Part shown: positions 11,559-29,368 of the stretch, piece after piece
How positions within the stretch are numbered: position 1 is the first letter of the stretch
Layout: every line of letters begins with the position of its first letter
Assembly (NCBI GenBank): GCA_043797125.1
Contig: JAZDPX010000032.1
Coordinates: 10,425 to 74,424 of the forward strand
Source of the DNA: Candidatus Omnitrophota bacterium
GTDB taxonomy: Bacteria > Omnitrophota > Gorgyraeia > JABMRG01 > JAFGKX01
Length of the DNA stretch: 64,000 nucleotides
Direction of reading: 5' to 3'
The notes under the pieces: generated by a model
Told to the model about the DNA's origin: nothing
What the model saw: the letters and a program-made list of their open reading frames with translations, nothing else
Database searches by the model: none
Position numbers and translations under genes: made by a program

Positions 11559-11559
11559 A

Positions 11560-12154: not shown

Positions 12155-13150
12155 ATGATTTTTAAGGATGTTTGGGTTTTATTGTTTTTTCCTGTTGCCT
12201 GTGCGCTTTTGTATTTTTTTAAAAGAAGAAGCACAACCTCCGGCATCAGATTTTCTTCCGCAAGATTAGTCAAAGGATATAAACCCACCTTAAAACTTGT
12301 ATTAGCGGACAAATTATTTTACTTGAGGCTTGCCGCGATATTCTTATTTTTTATAGCCCTGGCAAGGCCGCGGATACCGCTGGAAGAAACAAAAGTAGAG
12401 ACAGAAGGCATAAATATCGTTCTGGCAATTGACTCATCAGGCAGCATGCTGGCCGAAGATTTTAAGATAGCCGGCGTACGCCAGAACAGGCTGCAGGTGG
12501 TAAAGGGCGTTGTCCGGGATTTTATTAAGGCAAGAATTTCAGATAAGATAGGCATAGTTGCTTTTGCGGCGCGCGCGTATACCGTATGCCCGCTGACTCT
12601 GGATTATGACTGGCTTATCAGCAATTTGGAAAGGATAGAAATCGGCGCCATTGAAGATGGCACAGCGATAGGCTCCGCTATAAGCTCTTCTTTAAACAGG
12701 CTTAGGGATACACAGGCAAAAAGCAAAATTATTATTCTTTTAACAGACGGGGTCAATAACGCGGGCAAGATTTCCCCTCAAGCCGCGGCGGACGCTGCCA
12801 AAGCGCTTGGAATAAAGATTTATACGATAGGCGCGGGAACCAAGGGCCTGGTGCCGTATCCCGCGAGAAACATGTGGGGCCAGACAGTTTATCAAAATGT
12901 TGAGATAGACATAGATGAAGATATATTAAGAGAAATCGCGCAAAAGACCAACGGCCAATATTTCAGGGCAACAAGCACGGAGGCGCTAAAAGACATCTAT
13001 AAAGAGATAGACTCACTTGAGACAACGCCTATCCAGGAAAGCGGTTTTCAGGAATACAAAGAACTGTTTAGCAAATTTTTGGTTTTTGGATTAGCGCTTT
13101 TGATTTTAGAAATAGTTTTATCTAATACGGTTTTAAGGAAAATACCATAA
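12155..13150 (+). CDS. batA: vWA-domain membrane protein, BatA-like
   Basis: N-terminal TM segment. vWA MIDAS DxSxS (LAIDSSGSM). C-terminal TM segment. Confidence 0.8.
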   Translation: MIFKDVWVLLFFPVACALLYFFKRRSTTSGIRFSSARLVKGYKPTLKLVLADKLFYLRLAAIFLFFIALARPRIPLEETKVETEGINIVLAIDSSGSMLAEDFKIAGVRQNRLQVVKGVVRDFIKARISDKIGIVAFAARAYTVCPLTLDYDWLISNLERIEIGAIEDGTAIGSAISSSLNRLRDTQAKSKIIILLTDGVNNAGKISPQAAADAAKALGIKIYTIGAGTKGLVPYPARNMWGQTVYQNVEIDIDEDILREIAQKTNGQYFRATSTEALKDIYKEIDSLETTPIQESGFQEYKELFSKFLVFGLALLILEIVLSNTVLRKIP

Positions 13151-14160
13151 TGAGATTCGGGCAGATTGCGTATGCTTTTGGTTTTTGGATAGTCTTAGCC
13201 TTGAGCCTTTTTTTTGTCTGGGCGTTTAAGGAAAAGGCCAAGGCAATGCGCAGGTTTGCCGATCAGGGCTTTTTAAAGGAGCTTGCGGCTACGCTAAACA
13301 GAAAAAGACAGATAATAAAAACAGTAATAATTTTATTAGCTATTTTCTTAAGCGTTCTGGCTTTAATGCGCCCGCAATGGGGATTTAAATGGCAGGAGGT
13401 CAAGCGAAGAGGCCTTGATATACTTATTGCCATAGACACATCTAAAAGCATGCTGGCTACAGACGTAAAACCAAACAGGCTTGAAAGGTCCAAGCTGGCG
13501 GTTAAAGACCTGGTAAAAAAATTAAAAGGCGACAGAATCGGGCTTGTGGCGTTTTCCGGCACGGCATTTTTGCAGTGCCCGCTAACAATAGATTACGGCG
13601 GGTTTTTGCTGGCTTTAAATGATTTAAATACAGGCATAATCCCCAGAGGCGGCACAGCTATATCAAGCGCCATAAAAACAGCCATCGACAGCTACAAGGG
13701 CGGACAGAAAAAATACAAGATACTCGTTATTATTACCGACGGAGAAGACCTTGAGGGCGACGCGGTTAAGGCGGCAGAGGACGCGAAAAAGGAAAATGTA
13801 AAGATTTTCTGCATAGGAATAGGAACCGAAGCAGGCGAGCTTATACAATTGACTGACGAAAACGGCAATAAGTCTTTTTTAAAGGATGAGAACGGCAATG
13901 TCGTAAAATCAAGATTAAACGAGGTTATCTTAAAGAAAATAGCCCTATCAACGGGCGGGGCGTATGTGCATTCAAGCGGCGCTGAATTCGGGCTTGATAT
14001 GATTTACGAGGAAAGGCTCTCCAAGATGGAGAAACAAGAGATAAAAGCAAAGATGAATAAGCTTTTTATCGAGCGCTTTCAGATACCATTGGTTTTTGCG
14101 CTGCTTCTTTTAATCATAGAGCCTTTTATAGGCGACAGAAAGAGGGGGCAGGCTATGTAG
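13150..14160 (+). CDS. batB: vWA-domain membrane protein, BatB-like
   Basis: TM segments, vWA MIDAS IAIDTSKSM. ATG overlaps the batA stop. Confidence 0.8.
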   Translation: MRFGQIAYAFGFWIVLALSLFFVWAFKEKAKAMRRFADQGFLKELAATLNRKRQIIKTVIILLAIFLSVLALMRPQWGFKWQEVKRRGLDILIAIDTSKSMLATDVKPNRLERSKLAVKDLVKKLKGDRIGLVAFSGTAFLQCPLTIDYGGFLLALNDLNTGIIPRGGTAISSAIKTAIDSYKGGQKKYKILVIITDGEDLEGDAVKAAEDAKKENVKIFCIGIGTEAGELIQLTDENGNKSFLKDENGNVVKSRLNEVILKKIALSTGGAYVHSSGAEFGLDMIYEERLSKMEKQEIKAKMNKLFIERFQIPLVFALLLLIIEPFIGDRKRGQAM

Positions 14161-14162
14161 TT

Positions 14163-14178
14163 GTAGCGCAGGCTTAAG
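14163..14178. repeat. Truncated left arm of the type-1 palindrome (GTAGCGCAGGCTTAAG), immediately upstream of a complete type-2 copy
   Basis: gtagcgcaggcttaag followed by taaatgta and then the full palindrome at 14187-14218. Confidence 0.7.
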
Positions 14179-14186
14179 TAAATGTA

Positions 14187-14218
14187 GCCGTAGCGGAGCC
14201 TTAAGGCTCCGCTACGGC
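14187..14218. repeat. CTTAAG-centred palindrome (type 2) GCCGTAGCGGAGCCTTAAGGCTCCGCTACGGC
   Basis: Perfect 32-bp palindrome. Arms differ from type 1 by paired, compensatory substitutions (CAGG/CCTG to GAGC/GCTC). Confidence 0.85.
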
Positions 14219-14235
14219 CAGGTTGGGATGTCAAT

Positions 14236-15093
14236 ATGAAGAATTTTATAATAGCTATATTTATTTTGTGTTTTCTGGCAAACCCCTGCATGGCTAAAAC
14301 GCAGCCCAAGAAGATAATAAAAAAGGGAAATGCGCTGTATAAGCAGGGAGAATTTCATGACGCGCTGAAACAATATGAAGAGGCGTTTTTGCACGCGCCT
14401 GATTCTGATATCGTGAATTTTGATTTAGGGGACGCCTTGTATAAAATAAAGGATTTTAAGCGCTCAATAAGCCATTTTGAAAAAGCCCTTATCACAGAAA
14501 ACGCTTCCCTTGAGCAAAAGGCCGGCTATAATATAGGGAACGCCAAATATAAATACGGAATAAGCCTGGAAGAGGCTGATTTATCAGCAGCAATAATCTT
14601 ATTAGAACAGGCCCTTCATCATTATGAGCGTAGTCTCGAACTTAAACCTAAGGATAAAGATACGGAATTTAATTATGAGTTTGTAAAAAAGGAACTTGAG
14701 AGGCTGAAGAAGAAGCAAAAGGACCAGCAGCAGCAACAGCAAGGCCAGCAAGGGCAACAGGGTCAGCAGGGCCAGAAACCTGAGGGTGGTCAACAACCAC
14801 AAGGGCAACAGCAGCAGCAAGACCAACAACAGCAAGGCCAGCAAGAACAAAAACAAGACCAGCCGCAAGGTGGCGAGCAATCCCAAGGAGGCCAGCAGCC
14901 GCAGGAACAAGAGCAGCCGCAGGAACAAGAGCAGCCGCAGGGCTCAAGTCAGCAGCAAGATGCAAAAGGCCAGGCATCAGAAAAGCAGGCAGTAATGCTT
15001 CTTGAGGCTTATCGTCATGATGAAGAGCCCACGACTTTGTATAAGCAGAAGATTAATACAAGCGGGATGCCGGAAGCGAAAAAAGACTGGTAA
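14236..15093 (+). CDS. batC: TPR protein BatC-like, with a long Gln-rich low-complexity region
   Basis: Signal peptide, TPR-like N-terminal half, then about 80 aa of Q/G/E/P repeats (QQQQQQGQQGQQGQQGQKPEGGQQPQGQQQQQDQQQQ) encoded by imperfect CAG/CAA repeats at about 14710-14960. Confidence 0.65.
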   Translation: MKNFIIAIFILCFLANPCMAKTQPKKIIKKGNALYKQGEFHDALKQYEEAFLHAPDSDIVNFDLGDALYKIKDFKRSISHFEKALITENASLEQKAGYNIGNAKYKYGISLEEADLSAAIILLEQALHHYERSLELKPKDKDTEFNYEFVKKELERLKKKQKDQQQQQQGQQGQQGQQGQKPEGGQQPQGQQQQQDQQQQGQQEQKQDQPQGGEQSQGGQQPQEQEQPQEQEQPQGSSQQQDAKGQASEKQAVMLLEAYRHDEEPTTLYKQKINTSGMPEAKKDW

Positions 15094-15105
15094 TTTTTAG
15101 ACTCG

Positions 15106-15137
15106 GATGTAGCGCAGGCTTAAGCCTGCGCTACATC
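15106..15137. repeat. CTTAAG-centred palindrome (type 1, extended to a 32-bp perfect palindrome)
   Basis: gatgtagcgcaggcttaagcctgcgctacatc. Confidence 0.85.
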
Positions 15138-15170
15138 GGGAGATATTGCGAGAGTTAAACTATTACAAAA

Positions 15171-17009
15171 ATGCAAAATGCAAAATTTAAAATTAACATA
15201 TTAAAAGCACTCTTGGCCATAGTAGTTATTTTTGCATGCGCTGCGGCGATTGCCGAGGATATTAATTTTGAGGCGACGGTGGATAGAAATAAGGTTTCCC
15301 TCGGTTCGCGGTTTATGCTAAGCCTTAATTTTTACGGGACGCAGAGCATCCAGGAGCCTGACTTACCGAGCATAGAAGGATTCGATTCGCAATACACAGG
15401 CCCTGCCACGACAATGTCCATTATAAACGGCAAGGTCTCAAGTTCAATAACACACAACTATATACTTACACCGCTTAAAGCCGGTAAATTCGAAATACCT
15501 TCCTTAACAGTCGAATACAACGGTAAAACTTACTCCTCAAGCGCGATACCAATAGAAGTTGCGCAAGGGCCTGTCAGCCCGCTGCCAGGCGCGCAAGGCT
15601 CAACGCAGCAGGAGGCTTCTTATGATTTAGGCGACAGGATTTTTCTTGTTATGGAAGCTGATAAAAATACAGCGTATATAAACGAGAATATTGCTGTAAC
15701 AATTAAACTTTACATGAATAAGCTGCCTATTCGGGATATACGGTATCCGGAATTTGAGCATGAAGGGTTTTTGGCGGATAAATTTGACAAATACAAGCAG
15801 TATAAGGAAGCTATTAACGGGGTTTTATATGATGTTATGGAATTTAAGACAAATGTTTCAGCTACACAGACGGGTGAACTCAAAATCGGGCCAGCAAGCT
15901 TAAAATGTAATCTCATCGTGCAAAGAAGGCCAGGCAGAAGAGGCTCTGTATTCGACGATGATTTTTTCGGCTCGGATATCTTTGACGATTTCTTCGGGCG
16001 TTACGAAACATATCCTCTGGACTTGAAGTCAATGGATATATCTATTTCCGCGTTGCCCTTGCCTGATGAAAATGTTCCCGCTGATTTTAACGGCGCAATT
16101 GGGGATTATAATTTTTCTTTGGAAGCTAATCCGAAACAGCTCAAGGTGGGTGACCCTATTACCTTAAAAATGGCCATAAGCGGTAAAGGCAATCTTAATA
16201 CAATTCAGGCCCCAGCGCTTAATTTCGGCGATGATTTTAAGGTTTATGATCCCGAGATAAAGCAAGGCGATAATGTTAAGGAATTCGAACAGGTTATAAT
16301 ACCCAAAAGCGACAAAATAAAACAGATACCTGAAATTTCATTCAGCTTTTTTAATACTCAGTCAGGTAAGTATGAAAAAATTACTAAAGGCCCCACGCCT
16401 ATTATTGTAGAGCCGCTTGCCAAAGGCGACGAGCTGCAGGTTTTAGCAGCTCCTGAGCAAATTGTAGCCCAAGCGCCTAAGCAAGAAATATTAGGCAGAG
16501 ATATCATATATATTAAAGACACGCCGGGCGAGTTAAAGAAAAAAGGAGCATTTTTATGCAGGAGCAAGGCGTTTTTAGCGCTGCAACTATTGCCGCTTTT
16601 AGCTGTCATATCCGTACTTATTTTACATAAGAGGTACAAGCGCCTTACAACCGATATCCGTTACGCAAGGCGCATGCGCGCGCCGAAAAAGGCAAGAAAG
16701 AATCTGCAGGCGGCAAGGCAGCTTCTTAATACGCAGGGTGCGGATAAATTCTTCGAAGCTGTTTTTAAGACTTTGCAGGAATATCTCGGGGATAAATTCC
16801 ATCTTCCGACCGCAGGTATAACCTCAAGTGTGGTAGATGAGTTAAAAAAATATAACATCGATCAGGACGTTCTCTCTAAACTAAAGGATTGTTTTAACAG
16901 CTGTGACGCGGCGCGTTATGCCGCCTCCAGCATTACAAAAGACCAGATGCAAAACGCCTTTAAGATGCTTGAAGAGATAATTGATGAACTTGAAAGGGTA
17001 AGGCTATGA
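15171..17009 (+). CDS. batD: BatD-like oxygen-tolerance protein
   Basis: Signal peptide, large beta-rich extracytoplasmic domain, C-terminal TM segment plus a basic tail. Position in the batA-E operon. Confidence 0.65.
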   Translation: MQNAKFKINILKALLAIVVIFACAAAIAEDINFEATVDRNKVSLGSRFMLSLNFYGTQSIQEPDLPSIEGFDSQYTGPATTMSIINGKVSSSITHNYILTPLKAGKFEIPSLTVEYNGKTYSSSAIPIEVAQGPVSPLPGAQGSTQQEASYDLGDRIFLVMEADKNTAYINENIAVTIKLYMNKLPIRDIRYPEFEHEGFLADKFDKYKQYKEAINGVLYDVMEFKTNVSATQTGELKIGPASLKCNLIVQRRPGRRGSVFDDDFFGSDIFDDFFGRYETYPLDLKSMDISISALPLPDENVPADFNGAIGDYNFSLEANPKQLKVGDPITLKMAISGKGNLNTIQAPALNFGDDFKVYDPEIKQGDNVKEFEQVIIPKSDKIKQIPEISFSFFNTQSGKYEKITKGPTPIIVEPLAKGDELQVLAAPEQIVAQAPKQEILGRDIIYIKDTPGELKKKGAFLCRSKAFLALQLLPLLAVISVLILHKRYKRLTTDIRYARRMRAPKKARKNLQAARQLLNTQGADKFFEAVFKTLQEYLGDKFHLPTAGITSSVVDELKKYNIDQDVLSKLKDCFNSCDAARYAASSITKDQMQNAFKMLEEIIDELERVRL

Positions 17010-17779
17010 AAGTGCGGCTTGCTATTATGGTATTAGTATTCCTTATAATTTCAGTTTTTGCGGCTGCGGCCCGCTGCGACGATGCAAGTGATGCCCGCTC
17101 ATATTTTGCCAAGGCAAACGCCGATTATGCCGCGGAAAAGTTTGATGAGGCAATCGCTGATTACGAAAACGCCTTAAAAACAGGCTTTGAGAGCAGCGAA
17201 CTTTACTATAATTTAGGCAACGCCTATTTTAAAAGCGGACAATTAGGCAAAGCTATTTTAAATTATTCGCGCGCCAAGCGCTTTATGCCGAATGACGCTG
17301 ATTTAAAATCAAACCTCGAATATGCGCAGTCTCTTATAAAAGGCGGGGCGGCCGCCGCGCAGGCGAACTGGTTTGCGCACTTATTTTTAAAATTAACAGA
17401 TTTATTTAGCCTGGATAAAATTACTTTAATAAGCTCAATCCTGTATTTTATATTAGCTGCCTTGATTATTTTGGCAATTGTACTGAGCGATTTAAGAAAA
17501 ATCATAATTTATGCCGTAATAGCGGTCTGCATATTATTAAGCATATCCGCATCATCTTTATATGCGCAATACTACAGGACAATCGTTGAGAAGGAAGCGG
17601 TTGTTGTAGCCCAGACCGTTGACGCCAGATTCGAGCCTTTTGATGACGCGACCGTGTTTTTCAGTTTAAGCGAAGGCGAAAGCGTTGTCGTAGTCGCGGA
17701 AAGAGAAGACTGGGTAAAGATTAAGCGCCTTGATGCAAAGCAAGGCTGGATTAAAGAAGCTGACATAGAGTTGTTATAG
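17006..17779 (+). CDS. batE: TPR + SH3b-like protein, BatE-like
   Basis: Signal peptide, TPR motifs (YYNLGNAYFKSGQLGKAI), TM segment, C-terminal SH3b-like region (WVKIKRLDAKQGWIKEADIEL). Confidence 0.6.
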   Translation: MKVRLAIMVLVFLIISVFAAAARCDDASDARSYFAKANADYAAEKFDEAIADYENALKTGFESSELYYNLGNAYFKSGQLGKAILNYSRAKRFMPNDADLKSNLEYAQSLIKGGAAAAQANWFAHLFLKLTDLFSLDKITLISSILYFILAALIILAIVLSDLRKIIIYAVIAVCILLSISASSLYAQYYRTIVEKEAVVVAQTVDARFEPFDDATVFFSLSEGESVVVVAEREDWVKIKRLDAKQGWIKEADIELL

Positions 17780-17873
17780 CTAACTAAGGCCTCAGGGTCC
17801 TGCCCGTCACAAGTTCGGTTTTTGCAATGTTCAGAGCTGTTTAGCAAAGGCCTGTGACAATCCTCGCAGGGAC

Positions 17874-17904
17874 GCAAAAAAATCCCCAGCGAGGATTTTT
17901 TTGC
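17874..17904. terminator. Bidirectional terminator-like hairpin
   Basis: gcaaaaaaatcc ccagcga ggatttttttgc: a perfect 12-bp stem with A/T runs on both sides. Confidence 0.5.
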
Positions 17905-17954
17905 TCTGACCTCGGCCTTCGCTCTCGCCTGTATGGAAACAAAGCAAAACTATA

Positions 17955-18060
17955 GTCGTTCGGCTGGGGCCCCTCCGAAATTCACCTAAAGATAGTAGGT
18001 CAGGCTTAAGCCTGACCTACTATCCAAGGGTTCAGTTTCGGTGTCCCCAGCCTGCACTCC
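17955..18060. repeat. About 105-bp composite imperfect palindrome with a perfect 34-bp CTTAAG-centred core (type 3: GATAGTAGGTCAGGCTTAAGCCTGACCTACTATC, 17991-18024)
   Basis: The flanks cggctggggcccctccgaaattcacc and ggttcagtttcggtgtccccagcctg are imperfect inverted repeats around the perfect core. Lies within the 530-bp non-coding region upstream of the giant gene. Confidence 0.7.
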
Positions 18061-18198
18061 TATGTTTTGCCTGCAACCAAAACAAGTGACCAAATCTTCC
18101 GCTATTGTTTTTTCGGCTATGCCCAAGGGGCTTATTGCCGTGAATCCTTAAGCAAAACCTAACATTTCATTATTTTGTAACAAAATTCCAAAAAATCC

Positions 18199-18227
18199 TT
18201 GACAGAAGTGCTATAAATTGCTAAAAT
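18199..18227 (+). promoter_or_regulatory. Sigma70-like promoter (TTGACA-17-TAAAAT) for the giant-protein locus; the -10 lies inside an inverted repeat GTGCTA...TAGCAC
   Basis: ccTTGACAgaagtgctataaattgcTAAAATattagcac, with an about 75-nt leader and RBS AGGAGGGG before ATG 18312. Confidence 0.55.
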
Positions 18228-18311
18228 ATTAGCACTTTTTAAATCATCAAACCATATCAATAAAAAGTTTAGAATAATCAGGGGAAACCTAATATAATAG
18301 GAGGGGAAAAA

Positions 18312-21300
18312 ATGTCAAAATTGACACAAAAATTTTTCACCATTATTATCTGCTTAGCCTTTATCGGGCAAAGCACGAATCTGGGTTACTTACCTTCACC
18401 AAACTCATCTAATACGCATACCTTGCGCGGAATGGCGTCGCAATTCGAAATATTACAGGAACTAGAAGAAGAAATGGCAAATGTAATGCCGAAATTTTAC
18501 ACAGCTGAAAATACCGGGCCCTATATGCCATATTATCAGTTGGACAGATCCTTTTTGCAGGGAAAGGTCGGATTTGCAAGGCTTGGATGCGATACGCCTA
18601 TGGATAAAAAGAAACAGAAGGAAATGAAGGATCTGGTTAAAGAGAAAAAAGATATGTCCCTTCTTCTTACCGATGTCAGCCGTATAGCAGACCCTGCCAG
18701 AATAGACTCCGCTATTGAAACTTTAATACACGTTATACGAAACGGCGGCAGGGTAGTGCTGCAGCCCGGCTGGATTGGCAGGCCCGAAGGTAAAATTAAG
18801 GCAGAATTAAGCGTAGTTCCGGTATTTTTGTATATAAGGGACAAGCTTGTAAAAGCAGGAGTAATAAAAGAAGATGAAATGATCCTCTGTCCCACGGATT
18901 TAGAAAAAAGAGAATGCAAAAGCAATTTCCAGAATGTAGGCGTAATTCGGGAGGCTATTAAAACCCATCTTAAAGATTTTAGGAAAGATGGCGAATCGGA
19001 TAAGGATTATAACAAAAGAAAGGGCAAGGTTAAGATATTGTGCCTTGAAAATCCAAGATTCGATAAAGAGTACGATAGCTTTAAATACAAAGATTTTAAG
19101 GATAGCAAAATAGAGGAACCTGCATTTATAAAGATGCTTAAAGAGGAGATTGCTTATGTTGTTTATGATGACTTCAATCATCAGCACAGGCCGCCGGCTG
19201 ATATATCCCTTCTGCCTGAATATGTACCCTCTTTTGTGGGAAAACGACTGGCTGAAGAAATCAGAATGGCTGATATATTATTGGAGATACTTAATAAGAG
19301 AGATAGAAAACCTTTTGCCTTATATCTTGGAGGAAAGAAAATAGAGACAAAGCCAGGCAAGATTTCCAAGGTAACGGTTGCGCTGGAATTAATCAGAAAC
19401 GATATGATGCGCAAGGATGACAGGCTTCTCATAGGCGGCGGTGTTGCGTATGCCTTTTTGGTTGCCCAGAAATATATAGATAGAATCATAACAGGCTTCG
19501 TAGATGACCCCGATAAAATAATCAGCCAGGAGGCTGTAAAGAAAATTACTCGCGGTGAAATAAGTGATGTTATCGGAGATTCATATATCTCGGATGACCC
19601 GTTTGATACAGAAGAGGGTTTAAAACAGGCGCATGAGAGAATTTATACTTTCGCGCAGCTTTTGGTTGAGGCAGCGAAAAGAGGCATTAAGGTCGGGCTG
19701 CCAATAGATCACAAAGTCAGAAACAACAAAACCGGGCAAATAAAAGAATGTACAGGTAATATTGAACGTGGCTGGTATGGTATTGACATTGGTTCCAAAA
19801 CTCGAGAAATGTATAACGGTGCCAGAAAAGGCATAAGCGCAGGTTTGATTGCAGGGCCTATGGGTATAGCTGATGACCCCGACCTTCCCGAAGGCACAGA
19901 AGGCACAGACATAGTCCTTAATGGCCTTGCGGAAGAGACGAGGGATAACGGCGCCTATACATTAAGCGGCGGAGGCGAGACAACGTTCAGGGCAATGGAG
20001 ATTAAAGTATTGCTTTCATGGCTTTCCTTAGGAGGCGGCGCTTTGCTGGAATATATTCAGAAAAATCGCGAGCTGCATGGCCTGCTTGCGCTAAAGAGAT
20101 CAGCGGAGAAATTTGCCGAGGGGAGGGTGTTAGCAGTTTCTGATGCGAAATCAGTGGAAGACACCATTCAGCAGATTAGGCCCTTATATGAGTCGCTGAA
20201 TAAGATAAGAATAGCCATGCCTTCCAATAAAATACAATATAAAATATGGGCGTTAATCAACTATTTCAGAAAAAAGATAGCTACGTTAACAGGCGCTCCG
20301 TGGAAGATACCTATTACTGCGGGGAACTGGAAAGAGAATATAGGAGAAGAAGAAGATGCAAAAAAATTGATTAAAGAAATGATATATGACCTTCGTTTCA
20401 TAGAAGGGGTTATACCTTTTATATGTCCAACAGCTGCGCATTTAAAAATTGCCGCAGAAGCCATAAAAGAAATGGAAGACAAGGGAATTATAGCAAAAGG
20501 AAAATTCACTCTCGGAGCCCAGGATGTGAGCGCCTATGGGGATAAAGAAATGAGCCCCTATTATAAGGATATAAGAGAGCAGTCAGGCAGAACGCATATA
20601 AAAACTATAATAAATGCAGGCAAAGGATATGTTAAATTTATTATTGTAGGCCATTCCGAGACATGCAGGACTCCTGTAGGGGTGGGCGACGAAGAGGGAG
20701 GCGCTGTGCCGGCCGGGCCAGCTTACGATCCTTTATGTGATTACGATGTGAATAACAAGGCGAAATTAACATTAAAATACGGCCTTACTCCAGATATATG
20801 CATAGGCGAAAGTTACGCGGAAAGAAACGCGGAAAAACTATATCCAACTGCTGACGCAAGAAAGGCCTTTCTTTTAAGACGCGGCATAACAGATGATACC
20901 GGAGAACCGGCATGGAAGCAGATTTTAAGACGCCAGATTCAGAGGAGGTTTTTAGGCCCGGATCCCGACGGTGCGATTACTACTAAGATTACCAAGGAAG
21001 ATATTTTACAAAAAGGCATCTATCTTTCCTACGAACCTATCCACTTTATAAGTTTTGGCAACGTAAACGCGGTCGTGGATATGAAGATTGTCGAAGAAGC
21101 CAACAGATTTATCACCTCGGAGATACTCAAGTTGTATGATAACGATAAAGACATAAAGGATAAGATACAGACCGAGGTAATAAAATACGGCGGCAGCGCC
21201 AATGAAACAAACGGCGAAGAGATAATCTCTACTATTTTCACCATAGGCACCATAGCGGGTGGAGCGAGCAGAACTTCAGCCAGATACCTGGGCCTTAACG

Positions 21301-24300
21301 TGGCATTCGGCGGCTGGATGATTCCCCAAAACGCAATTTTAGAAATCGAAGCGGAGCTTAAGCAATTGCGCAAGGCGCTTAAATCTACGCCGGCTGATTC
21401 AAAAGATGCGTCTTTGGCCTTAGAAGGGCAAATAAACCTGCTTAAGGAATTAAAACAGATAGTGCTTGAGATTATGAAAAAGCAAGGTATAGCTATACCG
21501 GCGCCAAGGATACCGACCGAGCAAGAGATGGCCATATATCTGCAGCTTAAAAAGGTAAAAGCTGTTACAGACGCTCAAGCGCAGTATGCCGGAGCTTATA
21601 TTCCAATAATTGATATGGTAAGACAATTTTATAAAAAGGCAGAAAAGACAGTAATAGATAAAAAGAAAGGGATAGAAGCGCTTGCTAAATATAAAAGTGT
21701 TTCATACAAAGACGTAGACAGCATAGAAGATGATAGCGTAGTTATATTCTGCAATCCGGAAAAAGATATGTTTACGGCGAGATTATGGTCATTCGCTTCG
21801 TACAAGAACGACTATTATAAAGATTATAAAGATTACACAATCTACATAATAGGCCATGCGGATGAGTTCGAGGCTGCGATAGCGGCGGAAGAGGCGAAAA
21901 AGCAGGCGAAAGAGGATGCGAAAAAGACTGAAACTGATACAACAAAAACGAACAACTATAATGCTACTGAAAGTGGCCATGTTGATAATATGCCTGATTT
22001 AACGGGCTTTGGCCGTAACGTGCAGATGCCATACACGCCTTCAGAGGCGGAGATGAACCTGTATATTGCGGCTGTAAAGGTACAAAACGTTACTAATGTA
22101 AAGGGCGTTCAAGTTAAAAGAGGCGATGCCTTTGCAGAAGTATATAGTGACGAGGCCACCAGGTTAGAGGGCGAGGCAAAAAGCTTTGTTAAGAAACAAG
22201 ACCTCAAGAAATACAAGCGTATTTCATATAAGAACAGAAAAGAGATACCTGACGGATCATTGGTTCTATTACCTGCTAAAGATGCAGGAAGGGACGGATA
22301 CAGGGTGACTATATGGTCTGCAAAGAAATACAATAAGGGGGTTTACTCTGGGGAGTTGTATAAATACTTCACCTCCTCCACCGCTTATATAATAGGCCAC
22401 AGAGATGACTTTGAAGTTCTCATAACGGAGTCGCCAAAAAAATATGCTGAGTTATTAACTATGCAGTCTGGATGGGGTGACAAGTGGACCGAGTATTACC
22501 ATATAGTAGCTATAGATAAAGCAATCGAGGACTATACAAAAGAGTTGAATACAAGGGAACGCGACTTGTTAACACCGGAAGGCATATACGAAGAGTATTG
22601 CAAGGTATTAGACGGGGCAGACAGCGCAGAGTTATACAAGATGGCATGGGAATTCGCGTTACGGAAAGATTTTAAGAGCTTATCAACAATATCTGATATA
22701 AAGCAAGTAGCGCCCGGGGACATAATTATTATTACCGATACCAATCCAAAACAGAAAAGTGTCATTAATGTAATTGTGTATGACCCGCAAGAGCATGACT
22801 TAATTGTATCTGCCGCGATTTCCGATTTTAAGAAAGCCGAGGTGCGCTACATAGGCAATAAAAATATGTTTGAAGATAAAATATCTGTAACAGCAAAAGA
22901 CGTATTAAAAGTATATCTGGAGTTTAATAAAAGCGTGACTAACAATGATAAGTTTTTTAAAACCCACGGCATCAGGAGTACAATTGTTGAAAAGTTTGTG
23001 CGTTCCGGCAATTTTAAAAAGCTGCCTGTTGTCAAAAATCAAGACTATCTGCACTCGGGGTCGCTGTTTATTGCCGCTAAAACACAATGGGATAAGCAAT
23101 TAAGCGGGGATGTTCGCCTTATATTTGTAAGCGCTGGCAAGAGACATGCAATAGAGTATGGAGACTGGTGGAGCGCTGACGGGTCAAAAATCAGCGAGTA
23201 TGAACTCCGCTGCATAGGGCCTATCGCGTTAATAAAGAATGAGTTGGGTGAAAAGGCTGTTTCTAAGTTGAAAGACGAGATCGGCTACATAAAAGTTGAG
23301 TTAAAGAGACGGGAAAAACTAAAGAAAGAGATGACGGGAAAAAAGACGACTGTTTCTTCCGAGAAATCCCTTACCTGGCAAATTCCAAAAATTACTCCGA
23401 AAGATATACAAACTGTGTATGATGAGTACGTCAAAAAATATGATAGATGGTACCCATGGTCTATAGACCCGAAACGCCCGGATAATATTCCCGGATATGG
23501 GCTATTTTTAGAAGAAAAGGATATTCGCCCCCTAATAAATCCAAAGGGCATATGGGCGCTACGCAAAGTTATAGATAAAATAGCGGAAGAGGCTAAGATA
23601 GAAGGGAAAAAAATTGACTTAACAACGCACCCTGACGACCGCTTGTATCACAACAAGCTAGTCGAAATATGCCGGTGGACGCGTGTCGATTTAGGTAATG
23701 CGCTGGATATGATGCTTAAGGAACCAAACCGTCTGGGCTATGTGCTTACAAGCAAAGAAGACGCAATATCAAATTGCTTATATATTTCCAGTCTTACTGC
23801 TTATGAGTCTCTCGACAGCGAACAACAGAAGCGTTACAGAGATGGACTAGGGGGATGGCGCAATAAAACATTGCATCAACTAGCTGATGAGCGTATTGCC
23901 ACAGGAGAGGAAATTGCCAGTATGGACCTAACGCAATTCAAGAAGTATAAGTTCCGTCAAATACTGGTACAAACAGAGGATAAAAAGACGAAAGAAAAGA
24001 CGCAAGGACCCAATTACGACGTTACCGAACTTGCAAAAGGAAAAGTTGATGAGTTTACACCAGGAGAAGGTGCCATTCCTGGTGTTATGGTTGGCGCAAA
24101 TAATGCCCTCCAGACGGCCTTAGATATTATTAATACACCATCTTCCACCACGGACGAGAAGCAAATTGAAGAGTATGCAAAATCATTAGATAAGGCTGAA
24201 GAATCGCTTGACAAGGCAATAAATGCAACAAATTTGAAGGATGATTTTAGCGGTTTTAAGGCAATTGCTGCAGAAGGCACAGGCCTGCCTACGGGCACCA

Positions 24301-24959
24301 TAGATGAAGCCAAGGAGCAGTGGCAATACAGCACGAACATTCTACACGCGGTAAAAGGAATAAGTGCTGCAACAAGAATAAGAGGCCTGGAAGACGCAAA
24401 TCAGGATATTATTAAGCCGTTTACCATGTTTATAGATAAAACAGCGCCTTACCAGAAGCAACTTGAATGGGCAAAAGAGCTGGGTGTGTTTGATGTTGCA
24501 AAAGAGAAGTTCGGATGCCAGACAATAGAATTCGATCCTGCAAAAGATAAGATAGACGAATTATTAAAGCAAGCAAACGTCAGCAAAGACATGGCAATGT
24601 TTATCTCGCAGCCTAAATATAAAGAAAAACTTGAAAGAGCTGAAATTAAATCCATAATTATAGACAAATTCGAGCAGGGTATGTTCATAGATTTTATGAC
24701 CCTGGCAGGTTTTTCAAAGGTAATGCTCTATCTGGCCAAATATGGTGAGAATCAGGAATATAAGGACATTAAATCCAATTTATGGAATCTTGCCCAGCTG
24801 TTGTATAGGTCCTTAACTGGCGAGAGTGCGGTGCTTGAAAAGGATAGTATAACCAGTTTTGCAATTAATTTACCCTTGCCTGAACCCAAGGCTTTACTAC
24901 CAGACGAGAAGTTGAGAGAGCTGATTAAGATATCCGCGGAAACAGCAGGCAAGGCGTAA
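18312..24959 (+). CDS. Giant (2215 aa) protein: N-terminal signal-peptide-like segment, complete phosphoglycerate kinase-like domain, complete triosephosphate isomerase-like domain, about 1200-aa K/E-rich C-terminal region of unknown function with internal repeats
   Basis: PGK motifs: ETLIHVIRNGGRVVLQPGWIGRPEG...SVVPVFLYIRDKL (cf. SHLGRP...LKDKL), KILCLENPRFDKE (LENxRF), AYVVYDDFNHQHRPPAD (DAFGTAHRA), FALYLGGKKIETK, LLIGGGVAYAFLVAQ (GGGMAxTFL), GIDIGSKT...GLIAGPMGIAD...GTEGTDIVLNG...TLSGGGETTFRAMEIK...LGGGALLEY. TIM motifs: ITAGNWKEN, FTLGAQDVSAYGDKEMSPYYKDIREQSG...FIIVGHSETCR, ICIGESYAERNAEK, SYEPIHFISFG, VIKYGGSANETNGEEI, IAGGASRTSA. The C-terminal half has a duplicated module (...TIYIIGHADEFE / ...AYIIGHRDDFE). 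Confidence 0.85.
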   Translation: MSKLTQKFFTIIICLAFIGQSTNLGYLPSPNSSNTHTLRGMASQFEILQELEEEMANVMPKFYTAENTGPYMPYYQLDRSFLQGKVGFARLGCDTPMDKKKQKEMKDLVKEKKDMSLLLTDVSRIADPARIDSAIETLIHVIRNGGRVVLQPGWIGRPEGKIKAELSVVPVFLYIRDKLVKAGVIKEDEMILCPTDLEKRECKSNFQNVGVIREAIKTHLKDFRKDGESDKDYNKRKGKVKILCLENPRFDKEYDSFKYKDFKDSKIEEPAFIKMLKEEIAYVVYDDFNHQHRPPADISLLPEYVPSFVGKRLAEEIRMADILLEILNKRDRKPFALYLGGKKIETKPGKISKVTVALELIRNDMMRKDDRLLIGGGVAYAFLVAQKYIDRIITGFVDDPDKIISQEAVKKITRGEISDVIGDSYISDDPFDTEEGLKQAHERIYTFAQLLVEAAKRGIKVGLPIDHKVRNNKTGQIKECTGNIERGWYGIDIGSKTREMYNGARKGISAGLIAGPMGIADDPDLPEGTEGTDIVLNGLAEETRDNGAYTLSGGGETTFRAMEIKVLLSWLSLGGGALLEYIQKNRELHGLLALKRSAEKFAEGRVLAVSDAKSVEDTIQQIRPLYESLNKIRIAMPSNKIQYKIWALINYFRKKIATLTGAPWKIPITAGNWKENIGEEEDAKKLIKEMIYDLRFIEGVIPFICPTAAHLKIAAEAIKEMEDKGIIAKGKFTLGAQDVSAYGDKEMSPYYKDIREQSGRTHIKTIINAGKGYVKFIIVGHSETCRTPVGVGDEEGGAVPAGPAYDPLCDYDVNNKAKLTLKYGLTPDICIGESYAERNAEKLYPTADARKAFLLRRGITDDTGEPAWKQILRRQIQRRFLGPDPDGAITTKITKEDILQKGIYLSYEPIHFISFGNVNAVVDMKIVEEANRFITSEILKLYDNDKDIKDKIQTEVIKYGGSANETNGEEIISTIFTIGTIAGGASRTSARYLGLNVAFGGWMIPQNAILEIEAELKQLRKALKSTPADSKDASLALEGQINLLKELKQIVLEIMKKQGIAIPAPRIPTEQEMAIYLQLKKVKAVTDAQAQYAGAYIPIIDMVRQFYKKAEKTVIDKKKGIEALAKYKSVSYKDVDSIEDDSVVIFCNPEKDMFTARLWSFASYKNDYYKDYKDYTIYIIGHADEFEAAIAAEEAKKQAKEDAKKTETDTTKTNNYNATESGHVDNMPDLTGFGRNVQMPYTPSEAEMNLYIAAVKVQNVTNVKGVQVKRGDAFAEVYSDEATRLEGEAKSFVKKQDLKKYKRISYKNRKEIPDGSLVLLPAKDAGRDGYRVTIWSAKKYNKGVYSGELYKYFTSSTAYIIGHRDDFEVLITESPKKYAELLTMQSGWGDKWTEYYHIVAIDKAIEDYTKELNTRERDLLTPEGIYEEYCKVLDGADSAELYKMAWEFALRKDFKSLSTISDIKQVAPGDIIIITDTNPKQKSVINVIVYDPQEHDLIVSAAISDFKKAEVRYIGNKNMFEDKISVTAKDVLKVYLEFNKSVTNNDKFFKTHGIRSTIVEKFVRSGNFKKLPVVKNQDYLHSGSLFIAAKTQWDKQLSGDVRLIFVSAGKRHAIEYGDWWSADGSKISEYELRCIGPIALIKNELGEKAVSKLKDEIGYIKVELKRREKLKKEMTGKKTTVSSEKSLTWQIPKITPKDIQTVYDEYVKKYDRWYPWSIDPKRPDNIPGYGLFLEEKDIRPLINPKGIWALRKVIDKIAEEAKIEGKKIDLTTHPDDRLYHNKLVEICRWTRVDLGNALDMMLKEPNRLGYVLTSKEDAISNCLYISSLTAYESLDSEQQKRYRDGLGGWRNKTLHQLADERIATGEEIASMDLTQFKKYKFRQILVQTEDKKTKEKTQGPNYDVTELAKGKVDEFTPGEGAIPGVMVGANNALQTALDIINTPSSTTDEKQIEEYAKSLDKAEESLDKAINATNLKDDFSGFKAIAAEGTGLPTGTIDEAKEQWQYSTNILHAVKGISAATRIRGLEDANQDIIKPFTMFIDKTAPYQKQLEWAKELGVFDVAKEKFGCQTIEFDPAKDKIDELLKQANVSKDMAMFISQPKYKEKLERAEIKSIIIDKFEQGMFIDFMTLAGFSKVMLYLAKYGENQEYKDIKSNLWNLAQLLYRSLTGESAVLEKDSITSFAINLPLPEPKALLPDEKLRELIKISAETAGKA

Positions 24960-24981
24960 GCCGGCGTAGGGCAAATGTAGG

Positions 24982-25060
24982 GGCGCCATTTATGGCGCCC
25001 TGATGTAGGGGGGGCTTGATTTATCAAGCCCACAAAAATAGGGTTCGATAAATCGAACCC
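24982..25060. promoter_or_regulatory. Three tandem perfect palindromes (18, 18 and 20 bp) with AT-rich 2-nt centres, between the giant gene and the next gene
   Basis: GGCGCCATttATGGCGCC (24982-24999), GGCTTGATttATCAAGCC (25013-25030), GGGTTCGATaaATCGAACCC (25041-25060). Each is preceded by (t)aggg. They share the central ATTTAT/ATAAAT core but have different arms. Confidence 0.55.
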
Positions 25061-25091
25061 CTACTGCTATTAAGCAAAATAAGGGGATTTC

Positions 25092-27815
25092 ATGCCGAGT
25101 TTACCTAAAAAAGCAGTAACTGTCCTTATTGCCGCTATTTTCATCGCGCAAAGCGCAAATCTGAATTACCTTTCCGCTCAAACCCAATTAAACACGAACG
25201 CATTGCGGGCCATGTCCATGGCTATTGAGCTTGATCCAAACAAGGCTATTATAGAAAAAGTAAAAGAATACTACGCTGAAAAAGGCATAAATGCCGATGA
25301 TTATTATGTTCCGCCCATAGTAGGCAAAGATATATTTGGAAAAGAGCTGACCATAAATAAAGGCGATATAGTTATCCATGCTAACCATCGCGCAGACAGA
25401 GTTTTTGAAAGCTTATTTTCCCTTACAGATCCTGATTTTAATAAAGACAGCCAAAGGTTTGATACCCCTGATTTGGGCTTGCATGTCGTCGCCTTTGCTA
25501 ACCACGATTCAAAATATTTCGCTAAGCATGGCATAGAAGCTGCTTTTACCATCAACGAAGAAGACTACAGGCCTTCATACGATTCCTTGGTGGATGTCTT
25601 GTATGAAAATAATATCAAGCAGGGGTATTTTACAGAAACAGATAAGGGTAAACATGTAAGTTATTTTTTAGCAGGCCAGCGTAATCTTCCTTATGAGGAT
25701 ATGGGGATACACGTGGAAATCGTTGCTTCTCAATCAGTATCTGATAAGGAAAAAGACCCTAATATGCAGTATAAGGAAATAACATCAAACGCCATTAACT
25801 TTTTACAGAATAACAGCTCTGATGAGCCTGCTTTTATTTTGGTAAATTATCCTGTCGATATCCAAGGCCACAATATTAAATGTAATAAGCAAAGAGCTAT
25901 TGATACAATATCAGCCTGCGATAGGGAAGCTGAAAAACTATATAATGCGGTAAAAGAAATGGGCGGTGTATGGATAGATACATCCGACCACGGCAACGTT
26001 GAAGAGTTAGCTGTTTTGGATAAAAATGGCATGCCTGTAACGGATAAATACGGCAATATCCCTTATGACCAGCATACTGCTAATTCTGTTCATTGCATAA
26101 TAGACGGTTTAGGAAATGTTAATCTTAAAGATGGCAAGGGCCTGGCCAATATCGCCCCCACCGTCCTTGAAATTTTAGGAATTGATAAGCCGAAGGATAT
26201 GGAAGAAAGCCTGCTTAAAGATTATAAATACAAAAAGATAAAAGGCCCTGTTGTGGTTGTTGTGCGCGACGGCTGGGGTAAAAGCAAGTTTACTAACCCT
26301 GAGGCATTGGAATGGAATGGATTAGAACTGGCTAAACCCGCCTTTTTTAACCGGCTTAAAGAAACCGCCCCCATTACTTGGATTAAGGCGCACGGAAGCG
26401 CTGTTGGCCTGCCTGATTATCAGGAGGGCGATTCTGATAACGGCCATCGCACCATAGGGGCAGGAAAGATACTGCCGACATTATATAAATTAATTATAGA
26501 CCAAATAGAATCAGGCGATTTTTATAAAAACGAAGTTCTGCGCAATATCTTTAAAAAAGCCATAGAAGAAAAGCACGATATATGCGTGATGGGCCTTGAT
26601 TCCGACGGAGGAATACACTGCGATCATAAGTATTTTCTTGCTTTAATAGAAATGGCAAGGTGTTTTGACATTAAAAAGCATGGCATAAAGCTGAAGCTTT
26701 TTCCGATTTTAGACGGAAGAGACAGGATGACCAGAATATATGAACAAAGCGGAGCTTACTATCTTGAGGATTTAGACAGAAAGATAAAAGAAGCGGGTCT
26801 TGCAGGCGCTGCATATATAGCTCAAACTGTCGGAAGATATATGGCAATGGACAGAGACGCTGTAAACGCTGATAAGGAAAGAGAACGCCTTGAGCAGAAA
26901 TTATCCGATGCCTTAAAACCGGATGATCCCGCGAATAAAGCTGACAATATTGTGAAATTAGTATCAGGTATTACAGCATCTGTGACTAAGGAAATTGCAA
27001 AAACAGAAAAAGAGCTGGCCAAGGCAAAAGACGCGCCAAAACAGGCATTTTTTAACAGCATAATTAATTGTTTGAATGCCATTGGGCAGCTTAATGAGAA
27101 ATTTAATCTTGAAAACGCGAAAGGCAAAAATAGGAATAATGAGAAAATAATTGAATTAGGAAAGAAAATAGCTGAAAACAAAAGACAGGAGTGGCTTATC
27201 CGCGCTAGCGCATTATGGCAGGAGCGTTACAAGGTAGCTTACGATGCCTGGGTTTATGGGAGCAAAGCTCCTCAAATGAAGTTCATGGAAGCCGCCGCGC
27301 ACAAAGATGAGCCTTTGAGCGAGACGGTTGATTATTCAGAACCGCAGCCTGCAGATAAAAAGGGTGTATGTGTACAATACAGCTATGTTCTGCATTTAAG
27401 AAATAAGTTAAAAAAACATTTTGATACAACAACAACTTCAACTCTAACAGCTGCGGAACTAACATTAGAGGAAATAATAGTGGAATGTGTTAAAAATGAA
27501 GTATTTTATGCTTCAAACCCATTATTTATTAAAGATTCTGAATCTATAAAAGCTGATGGGGTTTATTTTTCAAGCCGTGCATTTAGGAGTAGAAAGTCAA
27601 TCACGGAACAAAATAAGCTCTGCAAGGATATATATATTCTTACGGGTGCGGGAATGGCCGATGTTGAGTCAGTAGCAAGATGGCAGTACCTGTTTGTAGG
27701 TAACCTGGATGAGAAAATATTAAAAAATGGATTCTCTGATAATCCAGGCGCAGAGAAAGTCTATCCTAATGATTCGCAGAAGCTGCTGGACATCGCAATT
27801 CTTGCGGCTGCGTAA
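25092..27815 (+). CDS. 907-aa protein: signal-peptide-like N-terminus with motif shared with the giant protein, circularly permuted 2,3-bisphosphoglycerate-independent phosphoglycerate mutase (GpmI-like) domain, about 200-aa unknown C-terminus
   Basis: C-terminal-half GpmI motifs come first: DIVIHANHRADR (FMNFRADR), FILVNYPVDIQGHN (ICNYPNGDMVGHTG), WIDTSDHGNVEEL (ITADHGNAE), LANIAPTVLEILGI (DIAPTMLSLMG). N-terminal-half motifs come second: VVVVVRDGWG (VLVILDGYG), AHGSAVGLPDYQEGDSDNGHRTIGAGKI (GLPDRQMGNSEVGHxNLGAGR), VMGLDSDGGIHCDHKYF (GLLSAGGVHSH), ILDGRDR (FLDGRDT), GRYMAMDRD (GRYYAMDRD). Confidence 0.85.
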   Translation: MPSLPKKAVTVLIAAIFIAQSANLNYLSAQTQLNTNALRAMSMAIELDPNKAIIEKVKEYYAEKGINADDYYVPPIVGKDIFGKELTINKGDIVIHANHRADRVFESLFSLTDPDFNKDSQRFDTPDLGLHVVAFANHDSKYFAKHGIEAAFTINEEDYRPSYDSLVDVLYENNIKQGYFTETDKGKHVSYFLAGQRNLPYEDMGIHVEIVASQSVSDKEKDPNMQYKEITSNAINFLQNNSSDEPAFILVNYPVDIQGHNIKCNKQRAIDTISACDREAEKLYNAVKEMGGVWIDTSDHGNVEELAVLDKNGMPVTDKYGNIPYDQHTANSVHCIIDGLGNVNLKDGKGLANIAPTVLEILGIDKPKDMEESLLKDYKYKKIKGPVVVVVRDGWGKSKFTNPEALEWNGLELAKPAFFNRLKETAPITWIKAHGSAVGLPDYQEGDSDNGHRTIGAGKILPTLYKLIIDQIESGDFYKNEVLRNIFKKAIEEKHDICVMGLDSDGGIHCDHKYFLALIEMARCFDIKKHGIKLKLFPILDGRDRMTRIYEQSGAYYLEDLDRKIKEAGLAGAAYIAQTVGRYMAMDRDAVNADKERERLEQKLSDALKPDDPANKADNIVKLVSGITASVTKEIAKTEKELAKAKDAPKQAFFNSIINCLNAIGQLNEKFNLENAKGKNRNNEKIIELGKKIAENKRQEWLIRASALWQERYKVAYDAWVYGSKAPQMKFMEAAAHKDEPLSETVDYSEPQPADKKGVCVQYSYVLHLRNKLKKHFDTTTTSTLTAAELTLEEIIVECVKNEVFYASNPLFIKDSESIKADGVYFSSRAFRSRKSITEQNKLCKDIYILTGAGMADVESVARWQYLFVGNLDEKILKNGFSDNPGAEKVYPNDSQKLLDIAILAAA

Positions 27816-27973: not shown

Positions 27974-29368
27974 GTGACTAAATTTTTTAGAAGGACAATC
28001 GCGGTTATTATTATCGCCGGCTTAGGCGCAGGCCAGGCGAGCGCCGACGCGCTCAGGCCTTCTGCCTTCGTGAATGGGCCTGAAAAAACAGCGCAAGAAC
28101 AGGCCTTCGAAAACCTTAAAAAGGCTTTTGATTTAAAAGGCGCGATAACCAAAGCTTTACTTGCCGAAGCGATAAATGAATTAGAGGATATATTTAATAG
28201 CCGCAGCCAAAGCGCGCGGGATACAATAGTAAACAATATTGCATATCCGTTTTTCGAAAGAGAAAAAGCCTCCCCCGGCAAAACCGCTTCGGAAACCCCG
28301 ATAAAGAAAGATCTGCTGGATAAAATTAAAGTTTTCGGGATAGATGTTATTCCTACGGGGGACGTTACTTTCATGTGGAAGGAGACAGCAAAAAATGGGC
28401 CTTTGGAATTAACAAACGTAATATATAATTCCGGCGGCGGCTCTGTGAACATAGCGAAGGTGTTCGCGAATTTTAATGAATATTTCGGCCTTATGTCTTT
28501 TGCGGGCAGAGGCAGATTCCATAAGAGATGGCGCCAAGATTTTGAAAGCGAGCACGTCATAAATTTCAGGTTTTTTACAGAGCAGCTTCACCGCAAGATA
28601 AATATTTATAATATTGTCAAGGGCGAAAAACTTCCTGTTCTATGCAGCAGGGGAAATACTATTCCAAGGGTTATAGTTAATGAGTTTTTAAAAATATTCG
28701 AAAAAAAGCTTAAAAAATGCAAAAATGTTAAATTTTTGACACTAAACGCCAGCTCAATGGTGGCGTTTGAAGACGCAGATGCGCTACGGGCATACAAAAA
28801 GATTATAGAAATCGCCCATAAGCATAAAAATAAAATCGAAGTTTTGATAGATTTTTCCTCGACCACAAAGCCGGATGTTATAAAAGCTGTTTTAGAATTA
28901 AATGAGCCAAGGAAGCGGCCTTGCGATATCATCACTCCGAGCCTTGAGCAGTTTATTAAGATATTGGAAAGCACAGGCTTGGCCAAAAAAAACGAGTTAT
29001 CCAGAGATACGCTGACCGACAAAAAAATAGCTACCTATGCCTGGCAGCTGATAAAGGACTATAACCTTTCAGCTGTCTTAATAAAGAGAGATAAGGACGG
29101 TTTGATATTGGTCAGGAACAATTATGAGTTTATGAGAGAAAAAGGGCTTGAGGTTGAAGTAGTATCTGAAATTGCTGCCGGAGACGCCGCTGCCGCCGGG
29201 CTTTTAATCGCTTTATCTGAAGGCAAAAGCTGGCAAGAAGCCATTAAGACGGCGGATTTATTTGGCGCCGCAACGGTTATTTTGCCCGCTACCGAGGTGG
29301 TTACCCCTGAAGCGCTTGATTTTGTCAAAAAAGAACAAATCCTGCAGAATATCTCCCAAGCGGCGTAA
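27974..29368 (+). CDS. PfkB-family (ribokinase/phosphofructokinase-B superfamily) carbohydrate kinase with N-terminal signal peptide; GTG start
   Basis: Signal MTKFFRRTIAVIIIAGLGAGQASADA. PfkB N-terminal glycine motif NSGGGSVNIAKVFANF. C-terminal ATP-site motif EIAAGDAAAAGLLIAL (cf. GAGDxFxGGFL). Confidence 0.75.
   Translation: MTKFFRRTIAVIIIAGLGAGQASADALRPSAFVNGPEKTAQEQAFENLKKAFDLKGAITKALLAEAINELEDIFNSRSQSARDTIVNNIAYPFFEREKASPGKTASETPIKKDLLDKIKVFGIDVIPTGDVTFMWKETAKNGPLELTNVIYNSGGGSVNIAKVFANFNEYFGLMSFAGRGRFHKRWRQDFESEHVINFRFFTEQLHRKINIYNIVKGEKLPVLCSRGNTIPRVIVNEFLKIFEKKLKKCKNVKFLTLNASSMVAFEDADALRAYKKIIEIAHKHKNKIEVLIDFSSTTKPDVIKAVLELNEPRKRPCDIITPSLEQFIKILESTGLAKKNELSRDTLTDKKIATYAWQLIKDYNLSAVLIKRDKDGLILVRNNYEFMREKGLEVEVVSEIAAGDAAAAGLLIALSEGKSWQEAIKTADLFGAATVILPATEVVTPEALDFVKKEQILQNISQAA

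Follow-up and report, generated by a model that had tools for sequence, protein, structure and literature searches.

A circularly permuted member of the cofactor-independent phosphoglycerate mutase family in Omnitrophota

In canonical cofactor-independent phosphoglycerate mutases (iPGM, GpmI), the transferase domain is an insert within an alkaline-phosphatase-like domain. Here we describe a gene in a 64,000-nucleotide stretch of contig JAZDPX010000032.1 (the whole stretch is called the window below), from a metagenome-assembled genome (MAG) of Candidatus Omnitrophota, whose 907-residue product belongs to this family and carries the two parts of the chain in reversed order. The closest described systems are the canonical enzymes of Geobacillus stearothermophilus (1EJJ/1O98), S. 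aureus (4MY4) and Leishmania (3IGY), represented by TIGR01307 and by PF01676 plus PF06415. They share both domains and the 16 catalytic and ligand residues with the window protein, are its top matches among solved structures, show 25-37% identity to it over each half and have a similar glycolytic linkage. Compared with them, the window protein is rotated, running from canonical ~208-511 through 12 linker residues to canonical 4-207, so that its phosphatase domain is contiguous and its transferase domain is split. It also adds a helical insertion of ~110 residues, an N-terminal leader and a 180-residue tail. Because it scores below the TIGR01307 cutoff, it is annotated as hypothetical; the sequence is identical to the NCBI entry 'MAG: hypothetical protein V2A72_05580 [Candidatus Omnitrophota bacterium]'.

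Among phosphomutases, a naturally occurring circular permutation has been described for PGM3/AGM1 (PMC5570346), an alpha-D-phosphohexomutase superfamily member, where a phospho-serine segment is likewise relocated in sequence and unmoved in three dimensions, although the fold is unrelated and ~60 residues within one domain are permuted, as against the whole two-domain chain in iPGM. Omnitrophota, for their part, encode long or giant proteins ('Archaeovorins') with signal peptides or transmembrane segments, which contain TIM, PGI, FBPase, PGM/PMM, aldolase, PPDK, methyltransferase and HAD modules and are possibly extracellular (West-Roberts et al. 2023, bioRxiv 10.1101/2023.11.21.568195; 2026 preprint 10.64898/2026.06.07.730766). 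The window protein comes from the same phylum, where chains of 1,744-7,967 aa can contain a permuted iPGM module, but with 907 aa and a single module it is not itself a chain of several thousand residues with many enzyme modules. Neither of the two papers mentions iPGM or permutation, and full-text literature searches returned nothing relevant on circular permutation with phosphoglycerate mutase, nor on Omnitrophota with phosphoglycerate. The literature searched contains no earlier account of the permuted chain topology, and the initial annotation of the locus likewise knew of no described permuted GpmI-type mutase; the enzyme family, its chemistry and the organismal context are known.

The same annotation had proposed that one open reading frame (ORF) carries the motifs of GpmI in permuted order. 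All nine quoted motif strings are present in the quoted order, with the set assigned to the C-terminal part first (residues 98-103, 255-260, 298-302 and 355-363) and the set assigned to the N-terminal part after it (residues 392-396, 446-452, 506-512, 541-544 and 581-589). The gene is organized as follows.

25092..27815, + strand: whole permuted iPGM gene, 907 aa plus stop, a single uninterrupted ORF (ORF list)
25081..25086, + strand: ribosome-binding site AAGGGG, 5 nt 5' of the ATG at 25092, read from the sequence
25092..25163, + strand: Sec-signal-like leader, aa 1-24, with a KK n-region and a 12-residue hydrophobic core AVTVLIAAIFIA, then AQS/AN
25191..25223, + strand: conserved post-leader motif NTNALRAMSMA ('xLR..[AS]'), aa 34-44
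25233..26213, + strand: old C-terminal iPGM part, aa 48-374, equivalent to canonical ~208-511 (phmmer against the PDB and canonical proteins, Pfam, residue conservation)
26214..26249, + strand: new junction, aa 375-386, LKDYKYKKIKGP, connecting the old C-terminus with the old N-terminus
26250..26876, + strand: old N-terminal iPGM part, aa 387-595, equivalent to canonical 4-195 (phmmer, Pfam iPGM_N, residue conservation)
26877..27209, + strand: helical insertion of ~110 residues, aa 596-706, lineage-variable, between MDRD and the transferase helix that follows
27210..27272, + strand: element that closes the permuted module, aa 707-727, helix LWQERYKVAYDAWVYG, counterpart of canonical 'RWDRVEKAYRAMVYGEG' and new C-terminus of the fold
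27273..27812, + strand: C-terminal tail, aa 728-907 (~180 residues), without a Pfam match and with a predicted local confidence (pLDDT) <50

The ribosome-binding site supports the start at 25092 and thus the inclusion of the leader in the protein. Residues 48-374 run from the second half of the transferase domain to the C-terminal phosphatase segment and hold R100, R103, K185, D256, H260, D299, H300 and H328, whereas residues 387-595 run from the N-terminal phosphatase segment to the first half of the transferase domain and hold D393, the nucleophile S448, H452, H509, R543, D544, R582 and R588. In the closing helix, W709, E711, R712 and A716 are invariant in the six-sequence alignment A1.

In a phmmer comparison with all PDB chains, the 11 distinct sequences that matched were without exception cofactor-independent phosphoglycerate mutases, and each aligned in two blocks and in reversed order. 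Against 7tl8_A, for instance, query residues 385-591 align with 4-194 (i-E 2.6e-28) and query residues 65-379 with 227-507 (i-E 5.8e-17). A local comparison with the homologues from our first database search gave the swapped order in two or more blocks for 87 of the other 92, all of these 87 being canonical; P0002-P0006 and P0081 (n=6) aligned with the query in one long block and are themselves permuted. We then compared the 907-residue protein with five canonical iPGMs, each concatenated with itself. In this doubling test the match became one colinear domain: query 55-590 aligned with 218-703 of doubled P0007 at 201 bits, as against two pieces of 93 and 96 bits with a single copy, and the doubled iPGMs of Phycisphaera mikurensis, [Clostridium] cellulosi and Geobacter sulfurreducens likewise gave one colinear alignment. 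Family models were also matched in two stretches each, namely Pfam Metalloenzyme (109 bits, cutoff 24.3; aa 163-366 equivalent to profile positions 68-252), Pfam iPGM_N (106.7 bits, cutoff 27; aa 470-590 equivalent to positions 3-112) and NCBIfam TIGR01307. From the reversed two-block matches, the doubling test and the two-stretch profile matches together it follows that the permutation is real and the chain order is permuted far beyond chance. A canonical order overlooked at first sight, which the initial annotation had named as grounds for rejecting its proposal, is contradicted by the reversed blocks against every canonical sequence and model, including the solved iPGMs, and by colinearity with doubled sequences only. 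As in a natural circular permutant, the protein is colinear with a doubled homologue, both orders occur in nature (33 permuted proteins versus thousands of canonical iPGMs) and no duplicated segment is left over.

The source is metagenome-assembled and a related contig (L002) contains a fold-back assembly artefact, which leaves the thought that two tandem gpmI copies were fused by a frameshift or misassembly, one contributing its 3' part and the second its 5' part. We regard this as extremely improbable. The ORF is single and uninterrupted and contains each half once, every frame elsewhere in the 64-kb window is free of gpmI remnants, and the genes on either side encode a PGK-TIM fusion and a PfkB-family kinase. 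Moreover, the junction sequence is conserved within the clade (SLL.DY.YQ.I.GP), tandem N-C-N-C arrangements were absent from the 362 retrieved proteins, and assemblies from NCBI, ENA, JGI and Logan yielded 33 proteins of the same architecture, including P0111, which is present on two independent assemblies. The two-gene or frameshift artefact, also anticipated by the initial annotation, is effectively refuted by this single ORF, the lack of remnants in the window, the conserved junction and the recurrence.

In one respect the motif assignment had to be revised. GGVHSH, DGRD, GRYYAMDRD and NFRxDR had been listed as phosphatase-segment motifs, whereas Pfam puts them in the transferase domain (iPGM_N); the cut therefore lies within the transferase domain, where the alignments place it in a loop at canonical ~207-213, and does not separate the two domains as the original labels suggested. 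As a consequence of this position, host and inserted domains exchange roles: in the permuted iPGM the phosphatase domain forms one unbroken stretch (about aa 160-465), inserted in a split transferase domain (aa 48-155 plus 470-727). The two inter-domain crossings are kept and so is the hinge. An AlphaFold2 model built from a 22-sequence alignment of permuted proteins has pLDDT >80 in nearly every 10-residue block of residues 51-720, mostly >85 over 48-727, and 93-96 in the junction region (residues 371-390). Alignments, doubling test and model agree on a circular permutation in which all metal and phospho-Ser motifs are retained, as originally proposed. In the pathway that we envisage, an ancestral iPGM chain would have been cut in this surface loop of the transferase domain, and ~12 residues would have come to link the old C-terminus to the old N-terminus, which both lie in the phosphatase domain.

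To see how far the permuted order extends among homologues, a check already recommended in the initial annotation, we built a profile from the window protein plus five relatives and ran it over 1.84 billion cluster representatives. Among the best 150 of the 7,808 matches, about 19 crossed the junction in a single stretch. Re-analysis against a canonical sequence, by which permuted order was called, placed the C-part before the N-part in the 33 proteins mentioned above; all break at canonical ~207-227 and in 28 of the 32 tabulated the junction is 8-20 residues long. They comprise modules of long proteins and stand-alone enzymes. The host proteins of the former have 900-7,967 aa (P0095, 7,967 aa; P0126, 5,027 aa; P0103, 4,163 aa), with fusions to phosphoglucomutase (PGM_PMM) in P0003, a methyltransferase in P0004 and HAD in P0005. 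On a neighbour-joining tree of the un-permuted sequences (100 bootstraps), 16 long-protein modules, the window protein among them, group as a clade at 100% bootstrap, and its taxonomically labelled members are all Omnitrophota, whereas the placement of the stand-alone forms has support <60%. A scan of a genome collection with two clade-specific peptides, which is too narrow for an estimate of distribution, found only four Omnitrophota MAGs and two canonical genes.

The stand-alone permuted enzymes (P0081, P0102, P0108/P0244-P0248, P0111 and P0113) have 506-602 aa and share the breakpoint and short junction of the window protein but lack its leader, helical insertion and tail. They start at canonical ~207-223, finish at ~206-209 and terminate exactly at the helix matching aa 707-727. 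Their catalytic residues are kept, with GRRGE in place of DGRD in P0081. With 50-57% identity to canonical GpmI and TIGR01307 scores of 477-653 bits they pass the cutoff and are therefore annotated as ordinary GpmI, as P0102 (MCK5535057.1) already is in GenBank, so that the rearrangement goes unnoticed. P0244 and P0246 lie directly downstream of pgi, overlapping its stop, in housekeeping neighbourhoods. In P0081 (L016 118-1734), GGVHSH also reads HYSSHG, and this permuted protein may handle its substrate differently.

For protein evolution, these chains are a clean natural experiment in which an enzyme with two domains and a hinge appears to tolerate being rotated, with host and inserted domains trading roles and the catalytic residues in place, and the same cut site recurs in lineages without obvious grouping. 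For annotation, the Omnitrophota form falls below the GpmI cutoff, and threshold-based pathway reconstructions could consequently miss the mutase step in these bacteria. The finding is of interest to specialists in protein evolution and annotation and overturns nothing established.

We mapped the catalytic residues onto G. stearothermophilus numbering from the alignment to 7tl8 (511 aa) and from what is published on that enzyme (1EJJ/1O98). Window residues and their G. stearothermophilus iPGM equivalents are as follows.

D393: D12
S448: S62, nucleophile
H452: H66
H509: H123
R543 and D544: R153 and D154
R582: R185
R588: R191
R100 and R103: R261 and R264
K185: K336
D256 and H260: D403 and H407
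D299 and H300: D444 and H445
H328: H462

We take D12, S62, D403, H407, D444, H445 and H462 to be the Ser nucleophile and Mn2+ ligands, and H66, H123, R153, D154, R185, R191, R261, R264 and K336 to be the substrate-binding set. The 907-residue protein has every one of these 16 metal, nucleophile and substrate residues; they are invariant in the six closest relatives (alignment A1) and are kept in 16 of 16 clade members wherever the region was extracted. Since the Mn2+ ligands, S448 and the Arg, Lys and His residues that bind 3-phosphoglycerate (3PG) and 2-phosphoglycerate (2PG) are all retained, interconversion of the two is expected. Full residue conservation and gene linkage make mutase activity probable, and there is good reason to think, judging from sequence, that the gene encodes a genuine, naturally circularly permuted iPGM working as a 3PG/2PG mutase. 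The enzyme would interconvert 3PG and 2PG through a phospho-serine intermediate, as canonical iPGM does, and would perform this step for the Omnitrophota bacterium, belonging to a lineage-specific set of elongated glycolytic enzymes with a Sec-type leader and an 'xLR' motif.

Several observations weigh against this assignment. Next to the catalytic residues, the clade has changed GNSEVGH to GDSDNGH, DMVGH to DIQGH and EKY to DKG; these changes remove no ligand and could shift specificity. The score for the GpmI equivalog model TIGR01307 is 278 bits, as against a cutoff of 330.65. A Sec-type leader is odd on an enzyme of cytoplasmic intermediates, and the ATP-dependent neighbours carry the leader too. 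Finally, the assignment does not account for the 180-residue tail, which has no confident fold and no detectable homologue in our homologue search, in which relatives cover only ~61% of the 907-residue query.

The changes flanking the nucleophile and a metal ligand, the sub-threshold equivalog score and the leader would also fit a protein that keeps the phospho-Ser/Mn2+ chemistry and acts on another phosphoester outside the cytoplasm, as a phosphatase or as the mutase of some other phosphorylated sugar acid, within the repertoire of surface or long-protein enzymes of Omnitrophota. Relatives fused to methyltransferase, HAD and PGM_PMM modules point the same way, as do the extracellular sugar-phosphate enzyme domains predicted in Omnitrophota giant proteins (West-Roberts et al. 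2023, 10.1101/2023.11.21.568195). We consider such a change of substrate unlikely, however, as the eight equivalents of the glycerate- and phosphate-binding residues (H123, R153, D154, R185, R191, R261, R264 and K336) are invariant and the gene regularly has genes for PGK, TIM, enolase and PPDK, and gap, as neighbours. Loss of catalysis, leaving a scaffold or binding domain in long multi-domain proteins, is very unlikely: the module does reside in proteins with large non-enzymatic extensions, and degenerate copies occur (P0109 and P0110, with weak partial matches), but complete retention of the 16 residues across a clade of 30-56% identity is unexpected for a pseudoenzyme. A working 3PG/2PG mutase thus remains our preferred interpretation.

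The neighbouring genes support a glycolytic context. They are as follows.

18312..24959, + strand: upstream neighbour, PGK-TIM fusion, 2,215 aa, with Pfam PGK at 116-583 and TIM at 667-843; named 'phosphoglycerate kinase' at NCBI
27974..29368, + strand: downstream neighbour, PfkB-family sugar kinase, 464 aa, with Pfam PfkB at 141-435 and a signal-like leader (…GQASA/DALR)

The NCBIfam hexose kinase and 1-PFK models match the PfkB neighbour below their cutoffs. Similar linkage is found around other clade members: P0002 is adjoined by TIM-PGK and enolase, P0004 by FBPase_3 and PPDK, and P0006, a leaderless member, by an ordinary gap-pgk-tpi-secG cluster.

The mutase, the PGK-TIM fusion and the PfkB kinase of the window share their N-terminus, which consists of a Lys/Arg-rich n-region, a hydrophobic core of 12-13 residues, a small-x-small site and the 'xLR' motif; over its first 47 residues the mutase shows 40% identity to the N-terminal leader of PGK-TIM. 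In other Omnitrophota MAGs the same leader is present on enolases (888 and 1,253 aa), an FBP aldolase/phosphatase FBPase_3 (1,019 aa), PPDK (2,154 aa) and orthologues of the mutase. Across MAGs its consensus is a K/R n-region, a hydrophobic stretch of 12-20 residues, small-x-small and '[DNST]xLR..[AS]'. The leader sites are located as follows.

Window: 18312-18450, 25092-25223 and 27974-28070
Locus L001: 955-1100
Locus L003: 10001-10130, 15193-15360 and 18422-18570
Locus L008: 2064-2200

The conserved leader looks like a dedicated sorting signal, and its xLR motif is unlike any signal known to us. Going by the appearance of the leader, export or membrane association of the mutase has about an even chance. 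iPGM thereby joins the glycolytic enzymes that Omnitrophota elongate, fuse and fit with leaders, which sharpens the question of where they act. In a more far-reaching and rather improbable scenario, Omnitrophota would send a lower-glycolysis/gluconeogenesis set (PGK-TIM, permuted iPGM, enolase, PPDK, FBP aldolase/phosphatase and PfkB) out of the cytoplasm or onto the membrane via this signal-like helix and 'xLR', forming an extracytoplasmic or surface-tethered module for processing sugar phosphates, perhaps those of prey or host. The permutation would then have been fixed because it brings both chain ends onto the transferase domain, so that the mutase could be inserted as a cassette in long multi-enzyme proteins with its metal-binding core undisturbed.

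At the other end of these proteins, a C-terminal domain of ~250 residues is common to P0002-P0005, P0094, P0098, P0101, P0109, P0110 and P0137 and to the enolase of L001 (955-4713, aa 1043-1260). It reads '...NSRFFKAVGGE..LLPGYL...VHSSFFKK.GAI.AL...GIYGEGADK...KQVGFS.KTISTVAVAKAM...' and terminates in KFIDSFI. Different enzymes of one Omnitrophota group carry it, and its hidden Markov model, which matched the L001 enolase at E = 1.8e-14, had no match among the window proteins, including the mutase tail.

In the upstream PGK-TIM protein the PGK domain is stretched (468 aa versus a profile of 360 positions), and about 1,350 residues past the TIM domain are without a Pfam match. In this region four repeats of ~70 aa can be discerned by eye ('...YKSVSYKD...YIIGHADEFE', '...YKRISYKN...YIIGHRDDFE'). 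The 132-nt spacer between PGK-TIM and the mutase contains three consecutive short GC-stem hairpins at 24980-25061, GGGGCGCCatttatGGCGCCC, GGGCTTGAtttaTCAAGCCC and GGGTTCGATaaATCGAACCC, which may be terminator, attenuator or REP-like elements.

At the P0006 locus, positions 1-6900 of the ENA contig L002 are an inverted, frameshift-riddled mirror of 12692-20292 (gap-pgk-tpi-secG-response regulator...). This left arm is a fold-back assembly artefact, and the N-terminal 315 aa of P0006 warrant caution.

In two different Omnitrophota MAGs the gene for permuted iPGM has a small PilZ-domain gene directly beside it, downstream in L001 (12935-13630) and upstream in L003 (9407-9751) and in L004, a second assembly of the L003 locus (7327-7671). 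This hints at regulation linked to cyclic di-GMP; no PilZ gene was seen next to the mutase gene of the window. Just upstream of the glycolytic cluster, window positions 9644-17779 contain a complete Bat/MoxR-type operon, with genes for a MoxR AAA_3 ATPase, DUF58, BatA-like and BatB-like VWA proteins, a TPR protein, BatD and a TPR-SH3 protein.

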